A stretch of DNA of 64,000 nucleotides from an uncultured Klebsiella sp. (GCA_964555355.1 CAZKRY010000016.1:28542-92541), one strand, 5' to 3'. Positions 14,046 to 57,192 are shown, counted from the first letter of the stretch. A program made the numbers and translations. Notes: generated by a model from the sequence alone, not told the origin.

Positions 14046-14059
14046 CGTGCATGTTCGTG

Positions 14060-25049: not shown

Positions 25050-25052
25050 CCG

Positions 25053-38114: not shown

Positions 38115-38117
38115 TAT

Positions 38118-41456: not shown

Positions 41457-42133
41457 TGGCGGCCGATACCTTCAATCACGGCGGCCGCAAGCGCCGGCTC
41501 GTGACCAATGAAAAAATGTTCGGCTTGTGGAAAGCATTGCAAGGTACAAGCGCCACGCGCGCTTCTTGCCAGAGACTCGATGCGCTCCGTCGGACACGCG
41601 AAATCGTCCGGCGCGTAATACAGGGCGCATGGACACGCCAAGTCGAGCGCACGCGAGTCAATTTGCCACTTCGCGAGCGGCGGCGAGATCAAGCCCAGAA
41701 AGGACAGCGGCGCGCGCGCCGCGAGTTCCAGCGCAGGCAAACAGCCGAATGAATAACCGATCACGATCGGGGGTATGGCGACGTGAACGTTCGCCTGCAA
41801 AGCCGCCAATGCACGCGCGCAGTCGAGATGGATTTCCGCTTCATAACGCGGGCAGGTTGAGCGCTCCCAAAACTCGCGCTGATCGGCGCTCAAATCACGC
41901 TCGCTCGCGCTGCCGCCGATCCCTCGATAATTAAAACGCAACGTTGGAATGCCCGCGGCGACCAACGCGTGCGCCAAAGTGCGCACCACGTTGTTGTCCA
42001 TATCCCCACCGAGAAACGGATGCGGCGGGCAAATCAACGCATTGACCGCCGGCGCGTCTAACGTGTCCTCGTAAGCTAAACAGGCCTCAAGCAGCGGGCC
42101 ACCGGCACTAATCGATAAACGCTCCTCGATCAT
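41453..42133 (-). CDS. alpha/beta-hydrolase fold protein
   Basis: GYSFG nucleophile elbow. The ORF has an ATGA overlap with the mqnD start. Confidence 0.55.
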   Translation of the reverse strand: MIEERLSISAGGPLLEACLAYEDTLDAPAVNALICPPHPFLGGDMDNNVVRTLAHALVAAGIPTLRFNYRGIGGSASERDLSADQREFWERSTCPRYEAEIHLDCARALAALQANVHVAIPPIVIGYSFGCLPALELAARAPLSFLGLISPPLAKWQIDSRALDLACPCALYYAPDDFACPTERIESLARSARGACTLQCFPQAEHFFIGHEPALAAAVIEGIGRQ

Positions 42134-43698
42134 GAGCGCGTGCCGAATGCCTGCGATGGGAGCCGCAGATATTCTTCGAGTAAACGAGGTGAATCGAAAT
42201 CGGCTTCGTCAAAATAAATCATCTGCGTTTCGCGTTGACGCGGATGGCCTGCGTGATAAACCCCAGATGGACTTAGCAACGTGCATTCCGGACGGTGCGC
42301 CGACCGCACCAAGCCATCGCTGCCAAACAGGCCCACCGCGTGCCCGTCAAGCGGCAGCGTTTCGAGTTCTTCGTAGGCGCGTAGTTGGTAGGGTTCGGCG
42401 GTTGCCGCGACGGTGGAATTGGCGGCTGCGCGCACGGTGATCAATTGATGATGTCCTGCCGAAAAATAAACGATCAAGCGCGTGTCCGGCGTGAGGTTGG
42501 TTATCGTCTCCGGCACCACGGCATCAAAACGCGTTACCTGATGCTGCTCCAAGTGAAAATGCTTGTCGGGCAACATCAACGGGAATTCGGCCGCTGCGCG
42601 TTGTTCAAGCTGATCGTTCGGGAAAATCTTGTAGTAGCAACCGCAGTTCGACACCGATTCCACCAACTGCGGGACACCTTGCGCGTCGAGCGTCAAACGT
42701 ACCGTCCACCCGTCGAGCGGTCCGGCTTCCGGATCGAACCGACTCAGCTTTGGATGTCGCGGATACCACAACGTATAACTCAGTTGGCGAACTTCCGAAC
42801 CTTGCATCCGCACGCGTCGTACAAATGCGTAAAGCGCCGGCTGCGCGCTGTCGACCTGCGGTAGAGGTGCACGGTCCTCACCGCGGGTCAGGCGCACAGT
42901 CCCAATTCGATCATCCGCCGCGGAATAGGCCGCGCCTTCGGTGATTTCTTGGCTGACGAGCGGCGCGTAGCGCTGCAGTAATCGCCAGTCTTGCGCGTTT
43001 ACGCCGGACGGACGCGGCGCCGCGCCGACCCGCAACAAGTTGCTGTGTCGGAAATCAAGCTTGCGAGGTCCGCGATCGTCATGCCAATTGTGATAGGCAA
43101 TCCAACCCGCGATGAAAGGCACCGCGGGCGCCGTCATCAAACGCCGGGCCATCCGCCCGCGGGTCATGATCGATTCGTCGATATGGACGATGAATTCGTG
43201 CCAGTAACGATCGAGCGCGGCGCCCCGTAAGTCGGCGCTCCGCGCTAATTCTTCGCGCTGGCGTTGATGTTGAGCGTCGATGACGCGCGCGGCGACCGCG
43301 GCACGAGATTCCGACACCTCGCGAGTTATTTCTTTGAGCGCCGCGTCGCTCAGCTTGGCGATGGACAGCGCGACGGATTTGTCCGCGATCTCGCCGGCAG
43401 CACGCAGGATCTCCGCGACGAACGCGCGCCGAGTCGCCTCATCCGCCTGTCGCGGGTAATCTTCAAACCGGTATCGCAACGCCAGATCGACCTGAAGAAA
43501 CGGCCGATCGAGTAGCGGTTGGTAACGTGCGTCTTGCGCATCCTGCGTACGAATGACTTGATAAACATCGTGTGCATCGAGCGCACTCGACAACGGCGCT
43601 TGGCGCACGGTGGTCGCGCATCCTGCGCATGACAGCAGCACATTTAACAGGGCGAACACGTGGGCGGGCAGTGGCGCTGCCATGCGCATTGCGGTCAT
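42130..43698 (-). CDS. hypothetical lipoprotein
   Basis: Lipobox-like LLSCAGC after a hydrophobic leader. It is the ORF immediately upstream of the hydrolase gene in the same operon. The start is uncertain (M14/M17/M19). Confidence 0.45.
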   Translation of the reverse strand: MTAMRMAAPLPAHVFALLNVLLSCAGCATTVRQAPLSSALDAHDVYQVIRTQDAQDARYQPLLDRPFLQVDLALRYRFEDYPRQADEATRRAFVAEILRAAGEIADKSVALSIAKLSDAALKEITREVSESRAAVAARVIDAQHQRQREELARSADLRGAALDRYWHEFIVHIDESIMTRGRMARRLMTAPAVPFIAGWIAYHNWHDDRGPRKLDFRHSNLLRVGAAPRPSGVNAQDWRLLQRYAPLVSQEITEGAAYSAADDRIGTVRLTRGEDRAPLPQVDSAQPALYAFVRRVRMQGSEVRQLSYTLWYPRHPKLSRFDPEAGPLDGWTVRLTLDAQGVPQLVESVSNCGCYYKIFPNDQLEQRAAAEFPLMLPDKHFHLEQHQVTRFDAVVPETITNLTPDTRLIVYFSAGHHQLITVRAAANSTVAATAEPYQLRAYEELETLPLDGHAVGLFGSDGLVRSAHRPECTLLSPSGVYHAGHPRQRETQMIYFDEADFDSPRLLEEYLRLPSQAFGTRS

Positions 43699-43714
43699 TG
43701 GTCGGCGCAATGGA

Positions 43715-44188
43715 TTAAGGCTGGCCGTCAACCGCATTGGTGAGCGCCGTCGCCGAATTCACATACTCGATGCTCTCAACTTTGAGCTGCTTGAGTTTGA
43801 TCACCGTGACTAGCGATTTCTGCGTCGGCAAATCCGTAATAATCGTGCCTTCGCGATCCAGAAATATGGGATAGCCATACTTTTGCATTTTGGGGATCGC
43901 GAAGTGGCGCGTGACAAAACCCGGCATGCCACTGACGTCGATCGCGTACATGGCGTGCGCGGCGGGTAGGTAGTCCGCGGATTTCGGCAGAAACGCTTGC
44001 TTGGCGAGCTTGTTGGCCGTCATATCGCGACTCACCAAAAGGACCCGCACCGTAGCGTCGAGCTTGCCTGGATGATCGTGCTGGTCGCTAATCGAGAACG
44101 GCTGCAAGGTATCGCCCACCGCGAGCGGCGCCGCCGAGGCGGTCCCAGTCACGAAGGCAACGAGAAAAACGAGAATTACGCGCGCCAT
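43715..44188 (-). CDS. periplasmic hypothetical protein
   Basis: Signal peptide MARVILVFLVAFVTGTASA. No recognised domain. Confidence 0.45.
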   Translation of the reverse strand: MARVILVFLVAFVTGTASAAPLAVGDTLQPFSISDQHDHPGKLDATVRVLLVSRDMTANKLAKQAFLPKSADYLPAAHAMYAIDVSGMPGFVTRHFAIPKMQKYGYPIFLDREGTIITDLPTQKSLVTVIKLKQLKVESIEYVNSATALTNAVDGQP

Positions 44189-44222: not shown

Positions 44223-44238
44223 TGCAATTCCAGGGCCA
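44223..44238 (-). promoter_or_regulatory. candidate sigma-54 promoter (TGGCCC-N5-TTGCA) upstream of the 43715-44188 gene and mqn operon
   Basis: Minus-strand reading tggccctggaattgca has exact GG-N10-GC spacing and lies ~35 nt upstream of the ATG at 44188. Confidence 0.4.
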
Positions 44239-44468
44239 GTCTCGCCGGCGTCGCGATCGACGCGTGCCGACTCACCGCAAATTCTCGCGCTATCCGACTA
44301 AGCATCGGAAAGCCTTGAGATATTTTTCAATCCCGGGTTATCGCAAGTCACCGCTCCAGACACCGTTCAAAAGCACTTTGCGCGAACATCCGCAAGAATG
44401 GTCTGCAAAATTGGTAGGAAGCCGCGCTTTGCTAGCGCATGGGTGTGAGTCTCGCGGTCACTCGCGTG

Positions 44469-46242: not shown

Positions 46243-48000
46243 ATGACGATCCGTGGTTTGTTGTTGTTATCATTCTTGTCGTTCAGCGCGCTATTCGCGG
46301 GTTTGACAACCTACGTGACTTATACGCATTCGCGCGCCGCCCTTGCCGGCGATATCCAATTGCAATTGGAAACCCAAGCGCGTGTTCTAAATCAACAATT
46401 TACTACCGCGCTGATCGAACGGCTCGTTGACATTCAAGGCTGGCGCGAGCTCGAAGTCATGCAAGATGTGAGAGTCGGCGATATCGATAAAAGGCTCGCC
46501 AAGTTCCTCGCAAGCGTCAAAGCGAATTACGGCGATTCTTACCTCGATATTCAGTGCGAGACCGGCGGCAGGATTATCGCGGCCGCCAACGCATCGTCCA
46601 TCGGGCAACCCGCGCCACCACTCACTGCGGGCCAGTCGTTTGCGGCGCCACACGCGTTTGAATTGGAACTCGCCGCGCCGGCACCGGGACCCATGCGACT
46701 GACGATCCGCATGCCGCTGCCCGATCCGTTCAACGATGGCGCACCGGGTGCTCTGCGCGCCCTTTTAAACTGGCGAAGTTTCGTTCAGCTGCTGGATGAG
46801 GCGGCGCACGGCGGGCGGACCGCGCTGTTACTTGATCGTGACGGTCGGGTTCTCGCGCAGGCGAGTACCTCGCCGCTGGGAGGCCTTCCGACGCGGTATC
46901 CGGCGCTAAGCACCGATGCCATTAACGGCGTCGGCGTCATCCGTATCGCCGATCCGACCGTATCGCCGACGGCATTGCTCGCCGGCTACGCGACTATCGC
47001 GGGCGACGTGAACTTGCCGGATTTGGGTTGGCGAATTGCCGTCGTCATCCCCGAGACGCAAGCGCTATCCCCAGTGCGTGATCTTTTACGCTCGCTGTTA
47101 GCGCCGTTCGCGGCGCTTATCCTGCTGGCGTTACTACTCGCCGTTTGGCTGTCGGGGCGTATCGCACAGCCCATCCGCGCGCTGGCGGTATTTGCGCGTG
47201 CGTTGGGACAAGATCTAGAGACGCCGCGCGTGGCCCCGAGTGGCACCCGCGAAGTCGGCGAACTTCGCACTGCCTTGCAACGGATGATCGACGATCTAAA
47301 GCGTTCTCGAATGGAACTCGTCCGCGCCGGGAAACTTGCCGTGGTGGGGGAGCTCGCGGCTAAACTTGCGCATGAAGTGCGCACGCCACTTGGCATTATG
47401 CGTTCGTCCGCCCAACTCGTCGCTCGGCAACCCGGCTTGAGCGAGACGGGACACGAAATGCTCGGCTACTTGATCAATGAATGTGATCGCCTCAATCAGC
47501 TCGTCACCGCCCTCTTGGATGGCGCGCGGCCGCGCGAACCGGTCCCGCGCCTCGTCGATCTGCACGCTATCGTGCGCGACGTCGCGGCCATGTTGCGAGA
47601 CAAGCTTGAAACCAAGCGCCTGACGTTGGACTTCGAAGGCACGGACATCGACTCGCAACTAGAGTGTGATCGCGATCAGCTGCTGCAAGTCCTGCTGAAT
47701 TTGCTACAGAATGCCATCCAAGCCACGCCGTACGAGGGCACGATCGTCATTACGATTGTCGGCACACCAGAAACGCTGAGCGTGATCGTCGACGACAGCG
47801 GCGAGGGTATTCCCGCGGCGCGGCGCGAAGCGATTCTCGAACCCTTCGTGAGTGATCGCGTCGGTGGGATTGGACTTGGGCTTTCCATCGTGCGTGAAAT
47901 CGTGACGCTACATCGCGGACGACTGGGCATCGATACTTCGCCGCGCGGCGGCGCCCGCATTGTCGTGACCCTGCCACGGCGCTTTTCGGGAGTTCAGTAA
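46243..48000 (+). CDS. sensor histidine kinase
   Basis: Two TM segments flanking a periplasmic domain, an HisKA H-box (LAAKLAHEVRTPLG) and an HATPase_c domain (N, G1 and G2 boxes). Confidence 0.8.
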   Translation: MTIRGLLLLSFLSFSALFAGLTTYVTYTHSRAALAGDIQLQLETQARVLNQQFTTALIERLVDIQGWRELEVMQDVRVGDIDKRLAKFLASVKANYGDSYLDIQCETGGRIIAAANASSIGQPAPPLTAGQSFAAPHAFELELAAPAPGPMRLTIRMPLPDPFNDGAPGALRALLNWRSFVQLLDEAAHGGRTALLLDRDGRVLAQASTSPLGGLPTRYPALSTDAINGVGVIRIADPTVSPTALLAGYATIAGDVNLPDLGWRIAVVIPETQALSPVRDLLRSLLAPFAALILLALLLAVWLSGRIAQPIRALAVFARALGQDLETPRVAPSGTREVGELRTALQRMIDDLKRSRMELVRAGKLAVVGELAAKLAHEVRTPLGIMRSSAQLVARQPGLSETGHEMLGYLINECDRLNQLVTALLDGARPREPVPRLVDLHAIVRDVAAMLRDKLETKRLTLDFEGTDIDSQLECDRDQLLQVLLNLLQNAIQATPYEGTIVITIVGTPETLSVIVDDSGEGIPAARREAILEPFVSDRVGGIGLGLSIVREIVTLHRGRLGIDTSPRGGARIVVTLPRRFSGVQ

Positions 48001-49358
48001 TGGCGCGCCACACCGTGCTGGTCGTCGACGACGAAATTAAGATGCAGCGCATCCTAGAGATCATGTTGCGCGAGATGGGGCTCGAGGTAGTGCGCGCGAA
48101 CCACGGGCAAGAAGCGCTCGAGATCATGGCGCGCGAGCCGGTCGATCTCATCCTGACCGACATGCGCATGCCGGTGATGGACGGTATCGCGTTGGTCAAG
48201 GCCTTGCATGACTCAGGCTCGCCCGTCCCCGTGATCGTCATCACCGCGCACGGCACGATCGAAAGCGCGGTGAGCGCCATGAAGCTCGGCGCCATCGACT
48301 ATCTGCTGCGACCGTTCGAGGTCCAAGCGATGGAACTCGCGGTACAGCGCGCATTGGCGCTTGTCAAAGTCAAACGCGAGAATCGTTACTTGCGCGATGT
48401 GGTCGCGGCCGACTGGCACGATTTGGTGGGCGACAGTCCGCCTATGCGCGAACTTATCGCATCTATTGCCCAGGTTGGGCCGACGAACTTATCCGTGTTA
48501 ATCGCCGGCGAAACCGGCACCGGTAAGGAACTGGTCGCGCATGCCATTCATCGCGCATCGCAACGCGAAGGGTTGTTTGTCGCGATCAACTGCGCGGGCA
48601 TCCCGGAAACATTGTTGGAAAGTGAATTGTTCGGCCACGTGCGCGGCGCGTTCACAGGCGCGCAAGGTGAACGGATCGGAAAATTCGAACTTGCGCAAAG
48701 CGGCACGCTGTTTCTCGATGAGATCACCGAAATGCCGATCGAACTCCAGACACGCTTGCTGCGCGCGCTACAAGAACGCGCCATCGAGCGCGTGGGAAGT
48801 AACCGCAGAGTCGATCTCGACTTGCGCGTGATCGCCGCCACCAATCGCGAACCGAAACTGGCGGTCGCCGAACGCCGGCTCCGCGAAGACGTTTTTTATC
48901 GTTTAAACGGATTCCGGATCGACGTACCGCCGCTACGCGTGCGCGGACCGGATATCGCGATATTGGCGCGCCATTTTCTCGCCCAGCACGCACAGCGGCA
49001 TGGCAAGCCGGTGCTTGCGCTTGACGCGGCGGCGATCAAACTCATCGAAGCCTATCGCTGGCCGGGCAACGTTCGCGAACTCGACAATTTAATGGGGCGG
49101 ATCGCGTTGCTCGCCGACACCGTCCCCGCCGCGCGGATTCTCGGTCGAGAGCTGGAAATTCCAGAAGGAGCGGTGAGCCCGCCCATCAATCTCAGTGACA
49201 CCGATCTTCGACTGGAAGCACAAATCGAAAACCTTGAGCGCCGCCTGATCCACCAAGCGCTCGAACGCGCGGAAGGCAACAAGGCCAAAGCCGCCCGACT
49301 GCTTGAAATCAGCGAACGCACGCTGTGGTACAAACTGAAGAAACTTGACCTCAATTAG
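48000..49358 (+). CDS. sigma-54-dependent response regulator (NtrC family)
   Basis: REC domain (VVDDE...D...K), AAA+ sigma-54 interaction domain (GETGTGKE, GAFTGA, ESELFGH) and a C-terminal Fis-type HTH. The start overlaps the HK stop (TAATG). Confidence 0.9.
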   Translation: MARHTVLVVDDEIKMQRILEIMLREMGLEVVRANHGQEALEIMAREPVDLILTDMRMPVMDGIALVKALHDSGSPVPVIVITAHGTIESAVSAMKLGAIDYLLRPFEVQAMELAVQRALALVKVKRENRYLRDVVAADWHDLVGDSPPMRELIASIAQVGPTNLSVLIAGETGTGKELVAHAIHRASQREGLFVAINCAGIPETLLESELFGHVRGAFTGAQGERIGKFELAQSGTLFLDEITEMPIELQTRLLRALQERAIERVGSNRRVDLDLRVIAATNREPKLAVAERRLREDVFYRLNGFRIDVPPLRVRGPDIAILARHFLAQHAQRHGKPVLALDAAAIKLIEAYRWPGNVRELDNLMGRIALLADTVPAARILGRELEIPEGAVSPPINLSDTDLRLEAQIENLERRLIHQALERAEGNKAKAARLLEISERTLWYKLKKLDLN

Positions 49359-50109
49359 CGGCGGCGTTTACTTCCCACCGGTACGGCAGCGACGCATCGA
49401 TTTCGCGCGCCACCGGCAGTTCGCGGTAATGTTGAATAAACCCACGCACCCCACCACGGGCGGCAAAGTCTTCCTCGAACCAGTCGAATATTTTGGATAC
49501 CCGCACCCGTTCGCCTTCGATCACTAGCCCTTTGGCGTCGTTACTCAAAAAGTTGGTGACCTGCTCGTCCAACTGGCGCGCGACGATGGACGCTTGATAG
49601 GGTTCGGCGCGGAGATCGGGGCAGCTCACCGACGCGCAAACAATCGCGAAATGAATTCGCGGATCGCCCATCTTGCGCAGGATTTCGTGTTCGATCGTGG
49701 CGAGCGTCATGGGTTGTCCGGCGACGGTGCCGGCCGGTCGCTTCCACACCGGCCGCAGAAAATTGCCGATGTCTCGGATACTCTCAAGCGGCCAATGGTC
49801 CGCAACCAACTTCAACGCCAGTAGGTTATACGCGTTGAGGTAGAACGCGAGGCGTGTGGCAGGCGTGCGGATGTCTGCGGGCGCCATCTCCGCAACTTGC
49901 CGCAACGCGAGCGTGAACTGCGGGTCGCGCCGTAATGCCGCATAGTCAACTACGTTTAAACGTACGCCTTGCAATTCGCCCGCGCGAACATGCGCATGCA
50001 AGACCGCCGCATAAGCGCTCCAATCAGGTTCCGCCGCTGCCACCTGCTGCGCAAAAATCAGCAGCAACGCCAACTGCGTGAGTCTGGACATTCCGCGCAC
50101 GGGTTTCAT
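49351..50109 (-). CDS. DUF547-like conserved protein with signal peptide
   Basis: The pattern YLNAYNLLALKLV...FAIVCASVSCP matches the DUF547 family. It is the last gene of the six-gene operon. Confidence 0.5.
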   Translation of the reverse strand: MKPVRGMSRLTQLALLLIFAQQVAAAEPDWSAYAAVLHAHVRAGELQGVRLNVVDYAALRRDPQFTLALRQVAEMAPADIRTPATRLAFYLNAYNLLALKLVADHWPLESIRDIGNFLRPVWKRPAGTVAGQPMTLATIEHEILRKMGDPRIHFAIVCASVSCPDLRAEPYQASIVARQLDEQVTNFLSNDAKGLVIEGERVRVSKIFDWFEEDFAARGGVRGFIQHYRELPVAREIDASLPYRWEVNAAAN

Positions 50110-51449
50110 GACGAGGCGTGTACCGCGGCAATTTGAGTACGCAAAACTTCGCGCAAGGTATGAACTAGGAATTCGATCTCATCATCGTCAATGACGAGGG
50201 GCGGCATCAACGTCAGAACATTACGACCAGGTCCCGTCTTGCCGACCAAAACGCCGTGGTCTTTCAAGTCTTCGAGCACCGCATCCGTTAAGGTGCCATG
50301 AGGTGCGCCGTCACGATCAGTCAATTCCATGCCAAGCATCAAGCCCAAGCCACGTACCTCCTTAATACAGTCAAACTCGGCGGCAATGCCATTTAAGCCG
50401 GCGCGCAGCCGCGCCCCTTGCCGTGCCGCACGCGCTTCCAATTGCTGCTCGCGCATGAAATCGAGCGTCGCCAACGCCGAGCTTGCGCAAACCAAGTTGC
50501 CACCGAAGGTCGAGGCCCCGGGTTTGGTGTAATGCGCCGCGACTTCGGGCGTCGCGACCATCGCCGCGATCGGCAAGCCGTTACCGAGCGCCTTGCAAAC
50601 GGTCACGATGTCCGGCTCGATATCCCAGTGTTGATGTCCAAAGCGTCGCCCGGTGCGGCAAAAGCCGGTCTGCGCCTCGTCCATGATGAACAACACACCG
50701 TGACGTTTGAGGATCGCTTGGACCCGCTCAAAGTAGCCCGGCGGAGGCACGACGATACCGCCATTGCCGTGAATGGGCTCGGCGACGAACGCCGCGATCT
50801 CACCTGGCCGCGACTGAAGAATATCGTCAATCGCATCAGCGCATTTAATCCCACATTGTGGAAACGTTAATTTCAGCGGACAGTCGCTGCACACCGGACT
50901 AGGCGCGAAATGAACATTGTCCGGCGGCGCGGGATCGGCACGCCAAAACGTCATTCCGGTAAGCCCGCTGGTCAGATAGGTACGGCCATGCAGCGAGCGA
51001 CTTAACGCAATAAAGCTATTGCGACCGGTCGCCAGCTTTGCAAGCAACAACGCGGTTTCGTTCGCCTCTGAACCGCTGGTACAAAAGAAGCTCTGACGCA
51101 GCCCGCCGCCGATAAAATCGGCGAGCGAAGCCGCCAATCGCAGCATGGGCTCGGTAAGGTAAATCGTCGTGGTATGCACCAATTGCTTGAGCTGTGCGAT
51201 CGTGCGCGCGACGATACTCGGCTCGCTGTGCCCGCAGTTCGTGACACCGACCCCGGCGTAGCAATCGAGATACGCCTTGCCGTCGCTATCGAAAAGTTGC
51301 GACGCCTCACCGCGCACCAGCACCATCGGTTTACGGAAAAAATGAAACACGCAAGGCACGAGAAATTCGCGCTTCAGCGCCAATAATTGCGCAACGGTTG
51401 AAGTCTCGGCGGAGCTTTTTTCAGTCATATCAATAAATCCCATGGTCAA
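50106..51449 (-). CDS. class-III (PLP-dependent) aminotransferase
   Basis: 447-aa ORF with class-III AT blocks (TSGSEANETAL, DEAQTGFCRTG, PLP-lysine context VTVCKALGNG). Confidence 0.85.
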   Translation of the reverse strand: MTMGFIDMTEKSSAETSTVAQLLALKREFLVPCVFHFFRKPMVLVRGEASQLFDSDGKAYLDCYAGVGVTNCGHSEPSIVARTIAQLKQLVHTTTIYLTEPMLRLAASLADFIGGGLRQSFFCTSGSEANETALLLAKLATGRNSFIALSRSLHGRTYLTSGLTGMTFWRADPAPPDNVHFAPSPVCSDCPLKLTFPQCGIKCADAIDDILQSRPGEIAAFVAEPIHGNGGIVVPPPGYFERVQAILKRHGVLFIMDEAQTGFCRTGRRFGHQHWDIEPDIVTVCKALGNGLPIAAMVATPEVAAHYTKPGASTFGGNLVCASSALATLDFMREQQLEARAARQGARLRAGLNGIAAEFDCIKEVRGLGLMLGMELTDRDGAPHGTLTDAVLEDLKDHGVLVGKTGPGRNVLTLMPPLVIDDDEIEFLVHTLREVLRTQIAAVHASS

Positions 51450-52476
51450 TCTTCAGGTTTGAGTTCGCCAGCGGTTGCGGCTCCCCGAGTCCATCTTGGC
51501 TCGCGGAGTCCGCCAGTCGCACGGCGGAATCGCGCTCGAGCACGCAGGGAAGAAAGCCGCTCGGATCGAGGCGATGCATCATGAGTTGGCCGCGCGTGCC
51601 AAGCGGTGCGCGCGTATTAACACGTTCCGCCGGTGGCCTATCGGTCAGTTCCACCACGCGCACGATGAGGCGCGGGCTTTGTGCGTAATAAGACGGCGTA
51701 TTACTTAAGAGTCGGCTCGGCGCGCGTTCATGGCAAACGCCAAACAGCGTATTACCGTAACCAGCCAAAAAGAGCGCGTGCGGGAATGCCCTGCGTAAGG
51801 CCTTGGCAACTTCCGCGCTAACCGGCATTCCACCTAAATAGAGAAGTTTCACGCACAGCCGCCGGGATTGGCTGAGCCGCGTGGCGAGTTCTTGCAATAC
51901 CACCGGCGTGCCGAATAGGTAACGGACATCTTGTAGCTCGGCGATCCGCAGCGCGTGTTCGAGCACATGATCGAGATAGCGCATCCGCGCGAGCGAGCCC
52001 GGCATCAGGCGCCGATACCAGCGCGGATCGAAATCGACGCTGAAGGCATCCGCGCCGGTGGTGAGCGCGGCGATCCGTTGCGCGGCTTTACCGATGATGT
52101 GCGGCCCGCCCGGACCTAGCCACAGCCAGTACCCGCCATCGAAAATCGCCAGCTTGCCCAACGTATCAAGAAATGGCTCGATGAAAGCCGACTCGAAGTC
52201 CCGTTGGGTATAGGCGGTGGTGGCCGGTGTGCCGGTGGTGCCGCCACTTTCGGCCATAACCAAGTGTTGTTCGCCTAGCAGCGAGCGCGGCACGAAGTCA
52301 GTTACCGGATAGCGCGCGAGATCGCCCAAATCGAACGGCCCCAAGCGCCCGAGATCGTCGATGGACTGAATTTCCGCACGTACTGACCAGCCGAGCGCGC
52401 GCTCACGGAGTAGCCAGTATGGCGAACCTCCGCTTGGATCGAAGTGCAAAGCGAGAATTTCACGCAACCGATTCAT
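51430..52476 (-). CDS. PaaK/coenzyme-F390-synthetase-like adenylate-forming enzyme
   Basis: SGGTTGTP adenylation P-loop-like motif in the ~340-aa ORF. Start trimmed to the ATG at 52476, giving an ATGA overlap with the MMPL gene stop. Confidence 0.55.
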   Translation of the reverse strand: MNRLREILALHFDPSGGSPYWLLRERALGWSVRAEIQSIDDLGRLGPFDLGDLARYPVTDFVPRSLLGEQHLVMAESGGTTGTPATTAYTQRDFESAFIEPFLDTLGKLAIFDGGYWLWLGPGGPHIIGKAAQRIAALTTGADAFSVDFDPRWYRRLMPGSLARMRYLDHVLEHALRIAELQDVRYLFGTPVVLQELATRLSQSRRLCVKLLYLGGMPVSAEVAKALRRAFPHALFLAGYGNTLFGVCHERAPSRLLSNTPSYYAQSPRLIVRVVELTDRPPAERVNTRAPLGTRGQLMMHRLDPSGFLPCVLERDSAVRLADSASQDGLGEPQPLANSNLKIDHGIY

Positions 52477-54527
52477 CGCCGCCGCTCGCCGAGTTCGATG
52501 AGTGTCGGCACGACGCACAGGTCGCACACCCACGCGGTCGTCACCGCCACCACCGACAACAGTCCAAATTGCCGAATCGGAATCAATCGCGTGAAGGCCA
52601 GCGTGGCAAACGCGCCACCAATGCATAGCGTCGTTAGCGAAAGCGCGCCACCCACTTCCATCAACGCGCGCTCAATATTGCCGCTCACGCGATACGCATG
52701 CAGTAAATAGATGGCGTCGTCGACCACCAACCCTAAAATCACGCTGCCGACGAACAAGTTAATGCTGTTGATGGCGATATCCGCCATCGCCATTACCCCT
52801 AAGGTCACCAGTAACGGACTAAAGATCGTCAGCGCCGCTAGGGTGAGGAGTTTCGCGCTGCGAAAAAACGGGATGAGCAGGATACAGATAAGGGCGAGCC
52901 CGGCGAGTAACGTCGTGCCCTGACTGGCGAGCAGTCGATCTTGCGCGCTCAGAATGAGCGGAATGATACCGGTGACGCGCATGGCAAGCTCGGCGCGCGG
53001 CGCCGCCATCCAAGCCGCGCCGATGGCCTGCGAGATTTCGCGAAAAGGGCGCGAATCGACATTTCGAAAGCGTAGCGACAACCTTGCGTGCCGGTGATCG
53101 GGCGTGAAAAAGGCCGCACCGAGCGCGTCCGGAAGCATTGCGATGTCGAAGCCCGATACCACTGCGGTGAGCTCCGGGATCGTGCGCAGTGCGCGCAGGA
53201 ATTCCTGCACCGAGCCAAGATGCGGCGCGCGGTCGAGCGGCGCGCCGTCGGTTGACGATATCATCACGTCAACCACCAGCAAGCCGGTAAAGCGCGATTC
53301 GATTGCGCGATAGTCCCGCACAAGTTGGGAATCGGCGGCAAAAAAATGCAAGGCATCGGGTTCAAGGCGCAGCGCCGGCAACTGCCAAGCACTAATCCCC
53401 ATTAACGCCAATAAAACGATACTCAAGATTCGCCTGGTGGTACGCCCCGGGGTCCACCCAACTCGACGTGGCACCAAAACTTGCGCGTTGCTCACGGACC
53501 ATAGCGCCGGCACCAACAACATCGAACAAAGAAAGGTGAAGATGACCGACGCGGCGATCACGGCGCCCATTCGCATGACGATTTCTTGCGGTGCCCGGGT
53601 AAACGCCAAACAACTCACGGCACTGGTCAATGTCGAGATGACCAACGGCGCCCATACCTGTCGATAGCCTTCACGCAAATCGCGTGGTGTCGCCGCAAAT
53701 CTCGCCATCAAATGGATGCCGGTGGTAAGGCTCATACAAAACACCAGCGGTACCAACAGCAAAGTCAGAAGATTGACCGACAAGCCCCAGGCGCCGACGA
53801 GCGCGAAGGCACAGAGGGTCGCGATGGCGACGCCAAGAGCGATGCTGAGGAGCGCGGCGACGCTGCGCTGGAAGTACCACAGCAAGCCCGCGGAGGTTGC
53901 GGTCAACAACACGACGACGAGTGCAAGATCGGCCGCGATGGCCTCTTTTAGCGTCGCCGAGAATACCGCGGTTCCGGCGAGCATCGGGGCGAAACCCAGC
54001 GACGTTAGACCCTGGCGCAACTCTTCGATGACCGCAGGATGGATTTGCGATTGCGCAGGGTCCAAGAGGATTAACGGGGCGAGCGCATCGACCGGTTTCG
54101 ATATCAACACATTGCGATAGTCGGCGGGCTGCGTGGCCAGGCGCTCGCGTAATGTCGCGATCGCGTCGGCCTCCGGTGGTTGCTCGGCGTCCGCGCCCAA
54201 CAATAACTCGGCCGGTTCAAAAACCTCGAGCACACCCGGCGCGGCGCGCAGGCGTTCGATTAAGGCGTAGTACGCACCCCGTGTTGCAGCTGTGAGCCGG
54301 TCCAATGCAAATGCCGCTTGCACGGTATCCGCGTCGCGAAAATTTGCGCGCAGCGCGAGATAGTCGAGATATGCGGGATCTTCCCGATCGATCCAATCCT
54401 GGTAGGAATGTCCGATTTTGAAGTGACCGGTCGTCAAGGCGAACCCCGCGACCAACGCGAAACTTGCGATGACCCACCACGGCCGCTTGGAAATCAGCGA
54501 CCAGCACCAACTGGCCGAGTTGGTCAT
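52473..54527 (-). CDS. MMPL/HAE3-type RND exporter
   Basis: 684-aa ORF with two TM bundles separated by soluble loops, as in the HAE3/MMPL family. Confidence 0.7.
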   Translation of the reverse strand: MTNSASWCWSLISKRPWWVIASFALVAGFALTTGHFKIGHSYQDWIDREDPAYLDYLALRANFRDADTVQAAFALDRLTAATRGAYYALIERLRAAPGVLEVFEPAELLLGADAEQPPEADAIATLRERLATQPADYRNVLISKPVDALAPLILLDPAQSQIHPAVIEELRQGLTSLGFAPMLAGTAVFSATLKEAIAADLALVVVLLTATSAGLLWYFQRSVAALLSIALGVAIATLCAFALVGAWGLSVNLLTLLLVPLVFCMSLTTGIHLMARFAATPRDLREGYRQVWAPLVISTLTSAVSCLAFTRAPQEIVMRMGAVIAASVIFTFLCSMLLVPALWSVSNAQVLVPRRVGWTPGRTTRRILSIVLLALMGISAWQLPALRLEPDALHFFAADSQLVRDYRAIESRFTGLLVVDVMISSTDGAPLDRAPHLGSVQEFLRALRTIPELTAVVSGFDIAMLPDALGAAFFTPDHRHARLSLRFRNVDSRPFREISQAIGAAWMAAPRAELAMRVTGIIPLILSAQDRLLASQGTTLLAGLALICILLIPFFRSAKLLTLAALTIFSPLLVTLGVMAMADIAINSINLFVGSVILGLVVDDAIYLLHAYRVSGNIERALMEVGGALSLTTLCIGGAFATLAFTRLIPIRQFGLLSVVAVTTAWVCDLCVVPTLIELGERRR

Positions 54528-56065
54528 GCGGTGAGTTCCGCCACGACATGGCGTTCCAGATGTTGGTAGTAATACCCGAGGAGTGCGCCGAATTTAAGCG
54601 CGGTTTCAAGATCGCCTGAGATCTTGACGCGTCCCGCCAAAAACGCCGCGCGCAGATCCGTCGCGCCTTCGATGATTTTCATAAACAGATCGGAATCAAG
54701 TTGATAGCGGCAAGTCGCGGGTTCGCGCGCATCCGACGTCGCCAAGCGCGCCGCGCCATGCGCGATGCACACACGTACCGCACACGCCTGCGCACCGGTT
54801 AGCGTGAAATCGATCTCGGCCGTCACGTAAGAATGCTGCTTGAGAAAATGCCGGCCGATCAATTTCTCGGCCAACGCGTTGAAATAATCGCGCGGATGCT
54901 GGATGGCGTTCGCGCCGAGCGCGAGATTGCCGACCGATGCCCCCTCGCCCGCTAAACGCGCGCGAAAGTCGCTGGCGAGCGAGCCAATCGCGACCTTACG
55001 TGGCGGACGACCGTGCGCCTGGACAAAGCAAGGCGCATGAAAGAGATACGGTGCGTATACCTTGGTCATGCGCCAGAACTGCTGCTCGAGCGGATTGCGG
55101 GGCGCGGCCTCGAATGCCGCCGTTGGCACAAGTTGTACGCCAGTGACGTCAAACGCCGCGGTAATCGCATCGGCCACCGCGTCGAGCGAGTACTCGTAGC
55201 CAACCAGCATGTGCGTAGTGCCATGGACGTCATCGGCTGCTAGTGAGGCGGCGATTCCTTCAACTACGTCCGCGATATCGACCAAATTAAGGGTCCCCGT
55301 CGCGGCGGCCGCCACGCGCAACGGAATATTGAGCGTGGCCGCGACGAACGTCGCGCCGAGCTGCGCGAACGCGCCACGACCGCGCGCGCGATCCCGCTCG
55401 CAGCACCTGCGCAGAAAATGCACGGCTTTCATAAACGTGTAAATCGTGCTGACTTCGTTGCGCTCACCGCACGGGTTGCCGCCGACGACGATACTCGGGC
55501 GGTGCACCACCACTTTCGGCTGTGCGCCGCGTCCTTGCGCATGCAGCCACTGCTCGGCCTCGAACTTGCTGCGTTCATACGGATTACGAAACGCTTGGCC
55601 GCGGGCGAGATCCTGGGCCTCAAAGGGCTGTGGACTATCCCCGGCGACGTAGGCAGTGCTGACCTGATGAAACCGCGGCACACCGAGAGCGCTCGCCAAT
55701 CGATACGCATGGCGGGTGCCAAACAGATTCTGCGTTAACAACTCATCCGCAAGATGCGATTCGAAACGCGTGAGTCCGGCACAGTGCACGAATGCATCGA
55801 CGCGGGATGACCGCAGTTGACGCGCGTCGCGTTCGGTGAGGGCGCATCCGTCCTCGGCGACATTTGCATCGACGACGAATAGGTTATCCAGGGGATTATC
55901 CAGCGACGCATCGCGATTGACCGCGGCGAGCGCAAGCGCGACCCGTTGTCGCGCAGACTTCGTCCCCGAGCGGGTAAGGCAATGCACCGTATGGCCGGCG
56001 CACAATAAATGGGCGAGCAAATGCTTACCAAGATAGCCGGTTGCACCGGTAAGCACGATATTCAT
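54524..56065 (-). CDS. fusion: N-terminal NAD(P)-dependent thioester/fatty-acyl reductase domain, C-terminal SCP2 lipid-binding domain
   Basis: N-terminal extended-SDR motif IVLTGATGYLGKHLL...YxxSK-like. C-terminal SCP2 motif (GRVKISGDLETALKFGALLGYY). Start trimmed to MNIVLTG. Confidence 0.6.
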   Translation of the reverse strand: MNIVLTGATGYLGKHLLAHLLCAGHTVHCLTRSGTKSARQRVALALAAVNRDASLDNPLDNLFVVDANVAEDGCALTERDARQLRSSRVDAFVHCAGLTRFESHLADELLTQNLFGTRHAYRLASALGVPRFHQVSTAYVAGDSPQPFEAQDLARGQAFRNPYERSKFEAEQWLHAQGRGAQPKVVVHRPSIVVGGNPCGERNEVSTIYTFMKAVHFLRRCCERDRARGRGAFAQLGATFVAATLNIPLRVAAAATGTLNLVDIADVVEGIAASLAADDVHGTTHMLVGYEYSLDAVADAITAAFDVTGVQLVPTAAFEAAPRNPLEQQFWRMTKVYAPYLFHAPCFVQAHGRPPRKVAIGSLASDFRARLAGEGASVGNLALGANAIQHPRDYFNALAEKLIGRHFLKQHSYVTAEIDFTLTGAQACAVRVCIAHGAARLATSDAREPATCRYQLDSDLFMKIIEGATDLRAAFLAGRVKISGDLETALKFGALLGYYYQHLERHVVAELTA

Positions 56066-56102
56066 GCGGTCCGCCGTGCCCCCCGTGGGTTGAGCAGCCG
56101 CG

Positions 56103-56975
56103 TCATGCCACCGCGCCCGCGCTCGGCGGGGGATACGCATCGATCAAATCAAGCGCCGGTTGATGCGAAATGAAGCCGTGTTTATGCGCTTTTGCATACA
56201 GCGCGCCTAATCCTAAGCGGACGTCGGCAGGCATCGATAACGTGTCTTCATTCGCGAATTTCGCGACAAAATCTTCGCGGATCGCGCTCATGGGGCCACG
56301 TCCAAAGGTGCTCGCAAAATGCATCGCTTGCACGCGATGGTCGAGTGCCCATGCCATGCTGTCGTACAAAAGCCGCGCGATTTGTTGAAGCCGCACTGCG
56401 CCCAGAGCGCGCTTCGCGACGAGCAGTCCAACCGGCAGCGGTAGCCCACTGTGTTCGAACCAGCGTTGTCCGAGACAGCAGATTTTGCGGAGCGGTTGCT
56501 GTCGATAGTTCAGCAATTCTTCGTGGATCAGGACGCCGGCGGCGACGTCTCTCGCGATAATCGCGTCGGCGACTTGGTCGAAGGGCATCGAGACGGATTC
56601 GAAATCCGTATAGAAGTAATTCAACAGGAAAGCGCCGGTAGTCGTCGCGCCCGGCACGGCGACTCGACAGCCGGCCAGGGTATCGCGCGAGTCGGTGGCG
56701 TGACACGCGAGCACCGGTCCATAACCTCGCCCAACGCTGGTACCGGAGCCCATAATGACGTAGGAGTCTTCAATTTGCGGATAGTAGATGGACGAGATGG
56801 CACACACATCAAAGTCACCGCGGCGACAACTTTCGTTGAGGTTCTTGATGTGATCGTGCGTGAAGGTCGGCATGAACCCTGCAGGTAATGCCAACTGGCC
56901 GGTTTGCAACGCGCAAAAATGAAACGCGTCATCCGGATCGGGGGTATAAGCAAAGCGGATAGGCCGGCTCATCAT
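56103..56975 (-). CDS. MqnA/MqnD-family (PF02621) paralogue, substrate unknown
   Basis: N-terminal IRFAYTPDPDDAFHFCAL mirrors the MqnD SPCPNDTF motif. ~290-aa ORF at the head of the six-gene operon. Confidence 0.55.
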   Translation of the reverse strand: MMSRPIRFAYTPDPDDAFHFCALQTGQLALPAGFMPTFTHDHIKNLNESCRRGDFDVCAISSIYYPQIEDSYVIMGSGTSVGRGYGPVLACHATDSRDTLAGCRVAVPGATTTGAFLLNYFYTDFESVSMPFDQVADAIIARDVAAGVLIHEELLNYRQQPLRKICCLGQRWFEHSGLPLPVGLLVAKRALGAVRLQQIARLLYDSMAWALDHRVQAMHFASTFGRGPMSAIREDFVAKFANEDTLSMPADVRLGLGALYAKAHKHGFISHQPALDLIDAYPPPSAGAVA

Positions 56976-57029
56976 GCTCCTTTATTCACCGGCCTGGGCC
57001 GGTCGGTGATCATCATGAGCGTAATAAGG

Positions 57030-57045
57030 TGCAGGGGACGTGCCA
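57030..57045 (-). promoter_or_regulatory. candidate sigma-54 promoter (cTGGCACG-N4-CTGCA) for the 56975-49351 operon
   Basis: Minus-strand reading tggcacgtcccctgca has a perfect -24 TGGCAC and a -12 CTGCA with correct spacing, ~55 nt upstream of the start. Coordinates are approximate to within 1 nt. Confidence 0.4.
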
Positions 57046-57192
57046 GACATCCCATCCGGACGCAGGCAATTGAATCAATTACTTGGAGCGTAACATCTTG
57101 ATGAGTCCTACCAAATTTGCAGACCTTCCTTGCGCGTCGACGCCGTGTGGCAAGCTGCTTGCCGTGGTTGGATGCGCTCCCCGCGTCGCGTT

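Follow-up and report, generated by a model that had tools for sequence, protein, structure and literature searches.

A conserved sigma-54-controlled gene set predicted to make an amine-bearing membrane compound from a naphthoate-type acid

What a closely coupled set of six uncharacterised genes makes is the question raised by a locus in DNA of an uncultured Klebsiella sp. The six open reading frames share one direction on the minus strand, from 56975 to 49351 of the window, i.e., the whole stretch of 64,000 nt. The initial annotation held that the combination matches no described pathway, and this is upheld: comparison with NCBIfam and a literature search found no described pathway and no published description of it. 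The genes form part of a conserved sigma-54-controlled set, repeatedly linked with the futalosine (vitamin K2) pathway, that probably makes an amine-bearing membrane compound from a naphthoate-type acid and then exports it. The product could be a new quinone-like molecule. The main thrust of the annotation, a conserved functional unit, stands, and its interpretation as a whole is partly supported; the type of adenylase, the placement of the PF02621 protein, the self-containment of the operon and the count of gene overlaps are revised below.

The six genes, g1 to g6 (operon B), do form the co-directional operon proposed, and Pfam profile search bears out the domains assigned to each. The two motifs quoted for them, YTPDPDDAFHFCAL and SGGTTGTP, are both found in the sequence. 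Where four 4-nt overlaps had been counted, true ATGA start/stop overlaps number three (g2/g3, g3/g4 and g5/g6). At g4/g5 the sequence TGAtATG leaves a single nucleotide between the genes, or, if other starts are used, they overlap by 14-20 nt. An ATGA also occurs at g1/g2 but not in frame, and the g2 start is most likely MNIVLTGATG, 37 nt downstream. For both g2 and g4 the longest-ORF start lies too far upstream.

The first gene, g1 (56103..56975), encodes a PF02621 protein (Pfam 172 bits) paralogous to MqnD, the 1,4-dihydroxy-6-naphthoate synthase. Its PDB matches are AF1704 (3e-46), MqnD TTHA1568 (5e-36) and, at just 9e-5, MqnA. A neighbour-joining tree sets g1 apart, outside the true-MqnD clade, and on these sequence comparisons g1 is assigned to an AF1704-like clade of its own, sister to MqnD and termed MqnD'. 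The protein had been described as an MqnA/D paralogue; it is MqnD-like, of the AF1704 clade, and neither MqnA nor an MqnA/D intermediate. Homologues with 45-47% identity likewise lie within clusters encoding EhpF-like proteins, and the MqnD' clade is found exclusively within these clusters.

The adenylase g4 (51430..52476) is a 348-aa EhpF-like ANL protein without the usual C-terminal domain and has a weak Pfam AMP-binding match. Its alignment with EhpF (PDB 3L2K/3HGU; E = 5e-33), its sole solved homologue, covers the whole protein, and no PaaK chain occurs among its PDB sequence matches, even at E <= 10. A PaaK/F390-like identity, as first suggested, is ruled out by these two results. The motifs GGTTG, YGNT and ERD are all conserved. 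The EhpF-like superfamily is small, with 1032 representatives among 1.84 billion. Elsewhere, fused proteins join the EhpF-like domain to SCP2, to a class-III aminotransferase (AT3; P0390) or to an alpha/beta hydrolase (abH; P0336). Such fusions place the joined activities in a single pathway and indicate that the substrate is hydrophobic.

The protein encoded by g2 (54524..56065; longest ORF to 56140) is an aldehyde-forming, thioester-reductase-type extended SDR with a C-terminal SCP2 lipid-binding domain (Pfam NAD_binding_4 127 bits, SCP2 42 bits). Its score against TIGR01746, 90 bits, is under the cut-off. The motifs TGATGYLG and YERSK are both there, and among PDB chains the MxaA R domain is matched best (1e-11), the nearest relatives being terminal R domains of NRPS/PKS. 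Next is g3 (52473..54527), an MMPL/HAE3-type RND exporter (Pfam MMPL 65.9 bits) whose C-terminal half matches the HAE3 and HpnN models below their cut-offs; planctomycete variants have a MacB-type ABC transporter in its place. The class-III (omega-type) aminotransferase g5 (50106..51428; Aminotran_3 312 bits) has acetylornithine, GABA and putrescine aminotransferases as top PDB matches, and its nearest relatives interconvert terminal aldehydes and amines. The last gene, g6 (49351..50109), encodes a DUF547 protein (81 bits) that is probably periplasmic, as its signal-like N-terminus, MKPVRGMSRLTQLALLLIFAQQVAAAEP, suggests.

Operon B is not self-contained. It is one half of a two-operon regulon, the other half being operon A, u179-u392-abH-mqnD-mqnB-mqnE-mqnA-mqnC (37020-44188, also on the minus strand). 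The first gene, u179 (43715..44188), encodes a secreted protein with a signal-like N-terminus and no Pfam or NCBIfam match. A lipoprotein-like protein of unassigned family, u392 (42130..43689), combines an N-terminal helical domain with a C-terminal NLP/NEP1-like beta-sandwich, a fold of lipid-headgroup-binding type. The abH gene (41453..42133) encodes a cytoplasmic alpha/beta-fold serine hydrolase (GYSFG; Hydrolase_4). MqnD (40650..41456; PF02621 190 bits) is a bona fide 1,4-dihydroxy-6-naphthoate synthase, matching TTHA1568 in the PDB at 1e-51 and falling inside the true-MqnD clade. An MqnB-like futalosine hydrolase/nucleosidase (PNP_UDP_1; longest ORF 40009..40950) scores 8e-21, under the cut-off, against TIGR03664 fut_nucase. 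The chorismate dehydratase MqnA (PF02621; longest ORF 38118..39104) matches chorismate dehydratase 7AHR/2NXO at 1.5e-13. In both of these genes the true start is probably downstream of the longest-ORF start. Two radical SAM enzymes complete the operon: an MqnE-like aminofutalosine synthase (38924..40012; TIGR03700 370 bits, cut-off 435) and an MqnC-like cyclic dehypoxanthinyl futalosine synthase (37020..38114; TIGR03699 413 bits, cut-off 428).

A sigma-54 promoter had been proposed for operon B. The -24/-12 element TGGCACgtcccCTGCA (57030..57045, minus strand) lies 70 nt upstream of the g1 ATG and is one of just five sites, counted over the two strands of the whole window, that match at least 10 of the 11 positions; no sigma-70-like site was found in the region upstream of g1. 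A -24/-12 element also stands 58-104 nt before the g1 orthologue in other loci, with 11/11 positions in L007, L009, L011 and L019, 10/11 in L010, L012 and L013, and 9/11 in L001. Because orthologous loci have such an element at a like distance, four of them a perfect one, TGGCACgtcccCTGCA is beyond chance, and the proposal is strengthened by a cognate activator encoded nearby. An enhancer-like motif, TTGCAGACCttccTTGCG (57117..57134, plus strand), upstream of the g1 promoter, is a putative binding site of the sigma-54 activator, and a second copy, TTGCAGACCattcTTGCG (44391..44408, minus strand), is found upstream of operon A. The pattern TTGCAGACC-N4-TTGCG has exactly two matches in the window against 0.02 expected, and also occurs upstream of orthologous promoters in L001, L009, L010, L012 and L013. 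Operon A has its own sigma-54-like -24/-12 element, TGGCCCtggaaTTGCA (44223..44238, minus strand), 50 nt upstream of u179, and TGGCCC-N5-TTGCW is kept upstream of u179 orthologues in L009, L010, L012, L013 and L019.

Between the two operons sit genes for a HAMP-HisKA-HATPase sensor histidine kinase, identified by domain search (46243..48000, plus strand), and its partner, a sigma-54-dependent response regulator with receiver, AAA+ and HTH_8 domains (48000..49358, plus strand), which is convergent with g6 and adjacent to operon B. With the window's pair as tblastn query, such pairs are detected within 10 kb of the cluster in several phyla (regulator in 19 of 86 loci, kinase in 15). A common sigma-54 architecture probably drives both operons through this kinase and activator.

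The core module of SDR::SCP2, MMPL, EhpF-like protein and class-III aminotransferase recurs in 86 non-redundant loci of several phyla. By tblastn the EhpF-like gene is present in all 86, SDR in 73, AT3 in 68, MMPL in 67 and SCP2 in 59. The accessory set consists of the alpha/beta hydrolase (54 loci), the u392 lipoprotein (22), DUF547 (17) and either a double U32 protein (51) or the MqnD-like protein MqnD' (24), these last two being mutually exclusive across loci (p = 3e-11); u179 is detected in 10. Carriers, nearly all of them uncultured MAGs, belong to Gammaproteobacteria, Magnetococcales, Planctomycetota (all sampled anammox genera), Omnitrophota, Hydrogenedentales and Syntrophales. The genes stay linked in orthologous loci across phyla, and in one (L087) all eight genes of the set form a single operon.

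The link with menaquinone synthesis, first seen as a paralogous offshoot, is real and goes beyond paralogy to synteny across phyla. In 18 of the 86 loci, classical mqn genes are found no more than 10 kb from the cluster, in differing arrangements and phyla. In gammaproteobacteria the five early mqn genes accompany the cluster, and mqnA together with a fused double radical SAM gene heads the cluster's own operon in Phycisphaerae and Pirellulales; anammox loci have none within 10 kb. Cytochrome b and multihaem cytochrome c genes are found downstream of the cluster in anammox bacteria and Phycisphaerae. A published survey reported the futalosine pathway as absent from Pseudomonadota, with just five genes in one Magnetococcia MAG (PMC11707229).

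From the observed gene content, homologies, synteny, fusions and motifs we infer, with moderate confidence, that the two operons form a regulon in which an aromatic acid made by operon A is adenylated, reduced, transaminated and exported by operon B. The acid would be a product of the futalosine pathway, likeliest 1,4-dihydroxy-6-naphthoate or a lipidated form. Its carboxylate would be adenylated by g4, and it is proposed that proteins of the EhpF family hand the acyl-adenylate to a reductase. The R-domain-type SDR g2 would then form the aldehyde, its SCP2 domain holding the hydrophobic substrate, and g5 would convert the aldehyde into a primary amine. The pump g3 may carry the product, which would be amphiphilic, to the periplasmic face or to the outer membrane, and the secreted DUF547 protein, the NLP-fold lipoprotein u392 and u179 may bind or process it. 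One further tailoring step would be performed by MqnD' in the window or by the double U32 protein, which is UbiU/UbiV-like, in anaerobic relatives. The route of activation, reduction, transamination and export in the initial annotation agrees with the enzyme families found (EhpF, R-type SDR, omega-aminotransferase, exporter), its chemistry and product being predictions.

Several observations count against this two-operon scheme. R-domain SDRs usually need an acyl thioester and no carrier protein is encoded, an ACP being present among the loci only in L090; moreover, EhpF and GriC are known to work with reductases of the aldehyde-dehydrogenase type rather than with SDRs. No prenyltransferase is found in the window or any locus, which leaves the lipid tail implied by SCP2, MMPL and the SCP2::adenylase fusions without an explained source. 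The AT3::EhpF-like fusion suits ligation of an amine with an acyl-adenylate at least as well as it does the reduction route. Just 18 of 86 loci have the nearby mqn genes, anammox loci none, and the scheme explains neither what MqnD' does nor why it alternates strictly with U32.

An unlikely, though not negligible, alternative is that SDR::SCP2 acts on a fatty acyl-CoA or acyl-ACP and yields a fatty aldehyde, which the aminotransferase turns into a fatty amine. The EhpF-like protein, unable to make thioesters, would adenylate the futalosine-derived naphthoate and ligate it to the amine, or the amine would add to the quinone ring, and an N-alkyl, non-isoprenoid lipoquinone would be exported. Adenylase, thioester reductase and class-III transaminase yield fatty amines in the biosynthesis of tambjamine (TamA/TamH) and prodigiosin (PigE). 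PigE is among the NCBIfam matches of g5, NAD_binding_4 is the fatty-acyl reductase family, here joined to a lipid-binding SCP2, and g4 lacks the thioester-forming C-terminal domain. The clusters encode neither a prenyltransferase nor, as a rule, a carrier protein, and the AT3:: and SCP2::EhpF-like fusions would bring amine and lipid to the adenylase. However, amide-ligase activity is unreported for the EhpF/GriC family, whose described role is in reduction, the ligation step has no support from any analysis, and MqnD', U32 and abH are explained no better than by the two-operon scheme.

It is less probable still that the pathway is one of lipids apart from quinones, with the EhpF-like protein activating a fatty acid in the manner of LuxE, the SDR and aminotransferase reducing and aminating it, and MMPL exporting a long-chain amine or aminolipid; proximity of mqn genes would then reflect only shared regulation or membrane physiology. 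SCP2, MMPL, the R-type SDR, abH and the SCP2::adenylase fusions all suggest lipid, as does the lipid-headgroup-binding fold of u392, and 68 of 86 loci lack classical mqn genes in the surrounding 10 kb. On the other side, the adenylase's only solved homologue acts on aromatic acids, as does the GriC system. The mqnA and radical SAM genes of Phycisphaerae are within the same operon, the five early mqn genes of gammaproteobacteria have the common promoter and enhancer architecture, MqnD' is exclusive to the cluster, and UbiU/V-like U32 and cytochrome b/c genes are neighbours. That the cluster replaces the MqnP/L/M steps and makes ordinary menaquinone from 1,4-dihydroxy-6-naphthoate is improbable. 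It occurs in futalosine-using lineages next to early mqn genes, and SCP2 and U32 recall the UbiT/U/V quinone-maturation machinery, but menaquinone synthesis calls for neither an aminotransferase nor an exporter, prenyltransferase and methyltransferase genes are missing from the cluster, inducible sigma-54 two-component control is unusual for a housekeeping quinone, and gammaproteobacterial carriers would be expected to use ubiquinone (PMC11707229). A known hopanoid (HpnA/HpnN/HpnO) or ornithine-lipid locus, a case raised in the initial annotation, is scarcely credible: the NCBIfam matches of g2 to HpnA (52 bits) and g3 to HpnN (42 bits) are far under the cut-offs of 368 and 752 bits, and neither the window nor the loci hold a squalene-hopene cyclase, HpnH or OlsB/OlsA-type gene. 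As far as sequence membership goes, such a locus is already refuted.

The two-operon scheme shares parts with several known systems. As with HpnN/MMPL (HAE3) exporters, g3 is above the Pfam MMPL threshold, but it is far under the family cut-offs and no hopanoid genes lie nearby. PigE (prodigiosin), TamH (tambjamine) and the R + TA pairs of polyketide alkaloids are thioester-reductase plus omega-transaminase modules, in which, as predicted here, an aldehyde-forming R-type SDR and a class-III aminotransferase lead to a primary amine. Those systems reduce thioesters bound to carrier proteins, whereas operon B clusters, L090 excepted, encode none, and g5 scores 252 bits against the PigE model, well under the cut-off of 850. 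UbiT/UbiU/UbiV is the O2-independent ubiquinone hydroxylation system. In relatives of the cluster, SCP2, as a protein or a domain, is likewise combined with a double U32 protein of 680 aa. The halves of the U32 protein resemble UbiU/TrhP and UbiV (compare PMC6747719), but they score far under cut-offs (UbiU 170 vs 440 bits, UbiV 78 vs 275), are fused in one protein and have no adjacent ubi genes; the window has MqnD' instead of a U32 gene.

In the gon cluster (PM100117/PM100118), dedicated mqn copies supply 1,4-dihydroxy-6-naphthoate, a known branch point, and the carboxylate is activated by an AMP ligase toward a non-menaquinone product (PMC4763440). The window likewise encodes MqnA, MqnE, MqnB, MqnC and MqnD. 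It differs in having no PKS, in EhpF-type activation followed by a reductase and an aminotransferase, and in the extra AF1704-like MqnD clade; it is also chromosomal, widespread and sigma-54-controlled.

EhpF/EhpG (the phenazine D-alanylgriseoluteic acid, Pantoea) and GriC/GriD (grixazone, Streptomyces) are two-protein, carrier-independent aryl carboxylic acid reductases. GriC is homologous to EhpF and related to the g4 family; g4, like EhpF, is without the ANL C-terminal domain. In these systems an aromatic acid of chorismate or amino-shikimate origin is adenylated and yields an aldehyde. GriC/GriD adenylate and then reduce 3-amino-4-hydroxybenzoate in this way (PMC10179220), and EhpG, the neighbour of EhpF, is an aldehyde-dehydrogenase-type reductase (PMC11278526). 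The partner reductases EhpG and GriD belong to the aldehyde-dehydrogenase family, whereas here the partner is an R-domain SDR fused to SCP2. Moreover, EhpF/GriC genes lie in secondary-metabolite clusters of single genera, whereas the g4 module is found in many phyla, where aminotransferase, RND exporter and futalosine genes accompany it.

Relatives of g4, the adenylase gene of the six-gene operon B, are accompanied by a recurring set of partner genes, and this module is itself the conserved unit, because the flanking genes vary among loci. With one genome scanned per species, 292 loci proved to encode a g4 relative, and 86 non-redundant ones (handles from the series L001 to L090) were analysed by tblastn. 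Many of these loci are broken off by contig ends and the component counts are thus lower bounds: 86/86 for the EhpF-like adenylase, 73/86 for the SDR, 68/86 for the class-III aminotransferase, 67/86 for MMPL, 59/86 for SCP2, 54/86 for an alpha/beta hydrolase (abH), 51/86 for a double U32 protein, 24/86 for the AF1704-like protein MqnD′, 22/86 for the lipoprotein-like u392, 19/86 for a sigma-54 regulator and 17/86 for DUF547. Neighbourhood conservation had been set as a test by the initial annotation, and the genes do stay linked across the 86 loci in several phyla. Carriers include gammaproteobacterial MAGs, among them Sedimenticolaceae, as well as Magnetococcales. On the Planctomycetota side are Pirellulales, Gemmataceae, Phycisphaerae, Sedimentisphaerales and every anammox genus sampled (Scalindua, Brocadia, Anammoxibacter and others); further carriers belong to Omnitrophota, Hydrogenedentales and Syntrophales. 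One related locus, L087, displays SDR::SCP2-MMPL-EhpF-abH-AT3-U32-u392 as a single operon, AT3 being the aminotransferase.

In the window, ORF calling and Pfam bear out the six minus-strand genes with named domains that had been described from 56975 down to 49351. These are g1 (56103-56975; PF02621), g2 (54524-56065; thioester-reductase-type SDR with a C-terminal SCP2), g3 (52473-54527; MMPL), g4 (51430-52476; weak AMP-binding match), g5 (50106-51428; class-III aminotransferase) and g6 (49351-50109; DUF547), all on the minus strand. For g2 and g4, the longest-ORF start lies too far upstream. Of four 4-nt junction overlaps originally proposed, three are present, each ATGA, at g2/g3, g3/g4 and g5/g6. 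The g4/g5 junction reads TGAtATG, and the ATGA that closes g1 is out of frame with g2, whose start most likely lies 37 nt beyond it, at MNIVLTGATG. A 14-codon out-of-frame mini-ORF runs from the g1-stop ATGA (56064-56106, minus strand), and its TGA overlaps the proposed g2 start (gcATGAat). It may serve in coupling or may have arisen by chance.

The g4 product is predicted to be an EhpF-type ANL adenylase. Its residues 4-348 align to EhpF residues 24-366 with both C-termini reached (E = 5e-33; PDB 3L2K/3HGU). EhpF belongs to the ANL adenylases but lacks their C-terminal domain, as does g4 with its 348 amino acids. The initial label "PaaK-like" does not hold: as a two-domain ligase of the PaaK or coenzyme F390 synthetase type g4 scores 23.7 bits for AMP-binding, below the cut-off of 29.9, and no PaaK chain is found among its PDB sequence matches up to E <= 10. 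The adenylation residues, on the other hand, are in place. The nucleotide-binding core motifs GGTTG (P-loop-like), YGNT and ERD are invariant or nearly so in 23 family members, and all three are in g4. The family is small, with 1032 representatives among 1.84 billion proteins in an exhaustive HMMER search. Natural fusions of the EhpF-like adenylase occur with four partners: SCP2, the aminotransferase, abH and a Zn-dependent dehydrogenase.

The adjoining g2 product appears to be a divergent thioester-reductase (R-domain) SDR. It matches NAD_binding_4 with 127 bits against a cut-off of 20 and carries the TGxxGxxG and YxxxK motifs as TGATGYLG at residue 6 and YERSK at residue 163. It is placed as divergent because it reaches only 90 bits against TIGR01746, whose cut-off is 213. 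The nearest matches are terminal reductase domains of NRPS/PKS enzymes, such as MxaA and AusA. As to identity with a carboxylic acid reductase of the A-PCP-R type (CAR), the window encodes the R-type SDR but neither a carrier domain nor a carrier gene, and the score against NF041592 is 32 bits versus a cut-off of 1300. The g5 product matches PF00202 with 312 bits and has its PLP-lysine region, CKALG, at residue 278. It reaches no NCBIfam equivalog cut-off; its likeness is to aminotransferases acting on acetylornithine, GABA and putrescine, enzymes that turn terminal aldehydes into amines and back. Planctomycete variants have a MacB-type ABC transporter in place of the MMPL protein, and this displacement supports a putative role of g3 in export. 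Elsewhere in the window (21977-27841, minus strand) another MMPL transporter, unrelated to g3, is encoded together with a LolA-like protein; next to them lie genes for a short-chain dehydrogenase and for a fusion of methyltransferase and ATP-grasp domains. A further set at 5903-15301 on the minus strand resembles the genes for methylamine use by way of N-methylglutamate. It encodes one glutamine-synthetase-like protein, three subunits like those of glutamate synthase (GATase, GXGXG, Glu_synthase) and sarcosine-oxidase-like subunits, with a GCV_T domain among the latter.

The g1 protein belongs to the PF02621 fold family (172 bits, cut-off 26). It had been described as an MqnA/D paralogue; family membership and kinship to MqnD stand, and close kinship to MqnA does not. 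The PDB ranking places the uncharacterised AF1704 first (3e-46), followed by MqnD (5e-36) and MqnA (7AN8, 9e-5). A neighbour-joining tree of MqnD-like proteins has two clean clades, one with TTHA1568, a true MqnD, and one AF1704-like. Copies adjacent to abH and mqnB group with TTHA1568, and g1 groups with AF1704 together with all cluster-embedded copies. Among members of the tree, true MqnD always adjoins abH and mqnB and the AF1704-like clade is always inside an EhpF cluster; three more AF1704-like homologues of 45-47% identity agree. Identity between g1 and the true MqnD of the window is 30%, and g1 has TPDPDDAF where MqnD has SPCPNDTF. Thus g1 is neither MqnD sensu stricto, given its place with AF1704 and not with the characterised TTHA1568, nor the chorismate dehydratase MqnA, as the scores and the tree agree; the window's true MqnA is at 38118-39104.

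The distribution of MqnD′ was compared with that of the U32 protein, a 680-amino-acid double-domain protein of relatives whose halves resemble UbiU/TrhP and UbiV. Both are found in one of the 86 loci, U32 alone in 50, MqnD′ alone in 23 and neither in 12 (Fisher p = 3e-11). This near-perfect mutual exclusion suggests that they are two alternative solutions for one step. The U32 variants are in anaerobic lineages; the MqnD′ variants are in Gemmataceae-type planctomycetes and the window's group of gammaproteobacteria. A small cupin protein is added in some MqnD′-type clusters, and a stand-alone PP-binding carrier occurs in L090 (L090:15739-16472; L089:11275-11772).

Operon A (37020-44188, minus strand) encodes, in order, the putatively secreted protein u179 (43715-44188, minus strand), u392, abH, MqnD, an MqnB-like nucleosidase, an MqnE-like protein, MqnA and, as its last gene, an MqnC-like enzyme (37020-38114, minus strand). 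The same arrangement adjoins the six-gene operon in related gammaproteobacterial loci. In Phycisphaerae and Pirellulales the operon opens with mqnA and a gene for a 748-amino-acid double radical SAM protein, and continues with SDR::SCP2-MMPL-EhpF-abH-U32-AT3, so that the 748-amino-acid gene is directly upstream of SDR::SCP2. This protein has two complete radical SAM plus CofH_C units (L063:2353-4599; also L030, L037, L046, L055, L061 and L077) and is apparently an MqnE::MqnC-type fusion. Classical mqn genes are within 10 kb in 18 of the 86 loci, and some Mqn-family gene is present in 35. In a published survey, the futalosine pathway was absent from Pseudomonadota, and one Magnetococcia MAG had only five of its genes (PMC11707229). 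This fits with five early mqn genes travelling with the cluster in lineages otherwise without them.

The genes behind the cluster in anammox loci encode a split cytochrome b (b6/ExtP-like) and several multihaem cytochromes of the c type. At L086:14604-18745 and in other anammox loci (Brocadia, Scalindua, Anammoxibacter), downstream of the aminotransferase gene, a small membrane protein is encoded between the split cytochrome b and three such multihaem cytochromes. It is possible that this set is a quinol-oxidising module attached to the cluster. Two multihaem cytochromes also end the Phycisphaerae loci. A paper on anammox extracellular electron transfer makes no mention of the cluster.

The sigma-54 promoter proposed ahead of operon B is supported as a putative one. 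The sequence TGGCACgtcccCTGCA, 70 nt upstream of the g1 start, matches 10 of the 11 positions of TGGCAC-N5-TTGCW, with the GG and GC dinucleotides at the consensus spacing, and in eight orthologous loci a -24/-12 element is found 58-104 nt upstream of the first gene, the g1 orthologue, with perfect consensus in four. No sigma-70 promoter was found upstream of g1, and a terminator scan gave background level only. A second element, TGGCCC-N5-TTGCW, is ahead of u179 at 44238 and is also present in five orthologous loci. Upstream of both promoters is the motif TTGCAGACC-N4-TTGCG, with exactly two occurrences in the 64-kb window (44391-44408 and 57117-57134; 0.02 expected). The spacing N4 is the correct one, N5 having given no matches. 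The motif precedes both promoters in the related loci L009, L010, L012 and L013; L001 and L019 have it at a single promoter. Between the two promoters, Pfam identifies a two-component pair (46243-49358), made up of a histidine kinase and a response regulator of the sigma-54-dependent type, the activator itself at 48000-49358. Comparable pairs occur with the cluster in other phyla. From these sequence features we infer that operons A and B form one regulon under the adjacent two-component system, with TTGCAGACC-N4-TTGCG as the putative binding site of the activator. The conserved promoter and enhancer pair offers a ready genetic handle to induce the system. Divergent from g1, on the plus strand at 57130-59340, is a DedA/VTT membrane domain fused to a pyridine-nucleotide disulfide oxidoreductase (mercuric-reductase/lipoamide-dehydrogenase-like), and the start region of this gene overlaps the enhancer-like motif at 57117-57134. 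No Rfam match to riboswitches or other RNAs and no tRNA were found in the window.

The u392 protein has a lipobox-like N-terminus, and u179, f41 and the DUF547 protein have signal-like N-termini. Together with a putative outer-membrane barrel at 44971-46110, these predicted features suggest a product acting outside the cytoplasmic membrane. The region 44469-46110 (minus strand), upstream of the second sigma-54 promoter, has two ORFs without a Pfam match: f41, a signal-peptide protein with a binding-protein-like C-terminus kept in 6 loci, and beside it a 379-amino-acid ORF that ends ...LSVLF and is outer-membrane beta-barrel-like.

A route can be proposed in which operon A would provide a futalosine-derived aryl acid, g4 would adenylate it, g2 would reduce the adenylated acid to an aldehyde with SCP2 holding the hydrophobic substrate, g5 would convert the aldehyde to an amine and g3 would export the product. 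We give this route about an even chance. The EhpF/EhpG precedent for it is reportedly a proposal of the EhpF structure paper. In GriC/GriD, the other precedent, an aromatic acid is adenylated and then reduced (PMC10179220). As for the acid, 1,4-dihydroxy-6-naphthoate is a branch point already known from PM100117/8 biosynthesis, where an AMP ligase activates its carboxylate (PMC4763440). The route has four weak points. An R-type SDR usually needs a thioester, and a carrier is encoded only in L090; tblastn with this sole ACP found none in the other loci. The partners of EhpF and GriC are of the ALDH type (EhpG is annotated as ALDH family; PMC11278526), whereas the neighbouring reductase here is an SDR, and no ALDH-family gene of the EhpG/GriD type is present in the window cluster or the loci examined. 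Third, a nearby prenyltransferase is absent: there is none in the window and none among gene families found in at least 6 loci by ORF clustering of the first 82 loci.

In a variant of this scheme, g2 and g5 would make a fatty amine that is ligated to the adenylated naphthoate, giving an amide; the variant also covers an alkylamino-quinone. The fourth weak point of the main route is that the fusion of aminotransferase and adenylase fits this amide-forming alternative as well as it fits the reduction and amination of the aryl acid. We regard the variant as unlikely. It appears improbable that the product is a lipid unrelated to quinones, and highly improbable that the genes form an alternative late menaquinone route.

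There is a realistic, though less than even, chance that the product of the regulon is a new quinone-type cofactor, a hitherto undescribed nitrogen-containing naphthoquinone that would be a lipoquinone or a periplasmic or outer-membrane electron carrier. The carboxyl carbon at C6, which menaquinone biosynthesis removes from the futalosine intermediate, would be retained and turned into an aminomethyl group or an amide-linked one. Among anaerobes, with all anammox genera included, the carrier would act together with the cytochrome b and the multihaem cytochromes c encoded behind the cluster; Gammaproteobacteria and Magnetococcales, thought to be without futalosine-derived quinones, would have acquired the system with five early mqn genes. 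If so, there would be a futalosine branch to a non-menaquinone product in anammox bacteria, other Planctomycetota, sulfur-cycling gammaproteobacteria and Magnetococcales, and the short list of bacterial quinone-type cofactors would gain a member. The "orphan" five-gene futalosine sets of Pseudomonadota would be explained, and a carrier-independent aryl-acid reductase with an SDR partner would be defined. Functions would also follow for four families: DUF547, u392, u179 and the AF1704-like PF02621 clade, whose structure was solved many years ago.

With respect to known systems, the original statement that the cluster matches no described pathway is sustained, and identity with the two known kinds of lipid locus considered, hopanoid and ornithine-lipid, is rejected. 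Hopanoid models score far below their cut-offs (HpnA 52.6 bits versus 367.65, HpnN 41.8 versus 751.85) and the hopanoid genes, of the HpnA/HpnN/HpnO locus, are absent from the window; ornithine-lipid models are likewise far under their cut-offs, with signature genes absent. The components also fall outside PaaK, CAR, MqnD sensu stricto and MqnA. The enzyme families are all known, and the searchable literature holds no description of their combination, the futalosine tie, the phyletic breadth or the regulon structure. There is a parallel to UbiT/UbiU/UbiV, the machinery for lipid-bound aromatic quinone precursors, in the U32 and SCP2 of relatives: the double U32 of 51 of the 86 loci resembles UbiU plus UbiV, with scores well below cut-offs, and the window has the SCP2 domain but not the U32 gene. 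The closest working likeness is an aryl-acid reductase of the EhpF/GriC type followed by an R-plus-transaminase step, with the difference that the EhpF/GriC systems have an ALDH-type reductase partner and the window has an SDR fused to SCP2.
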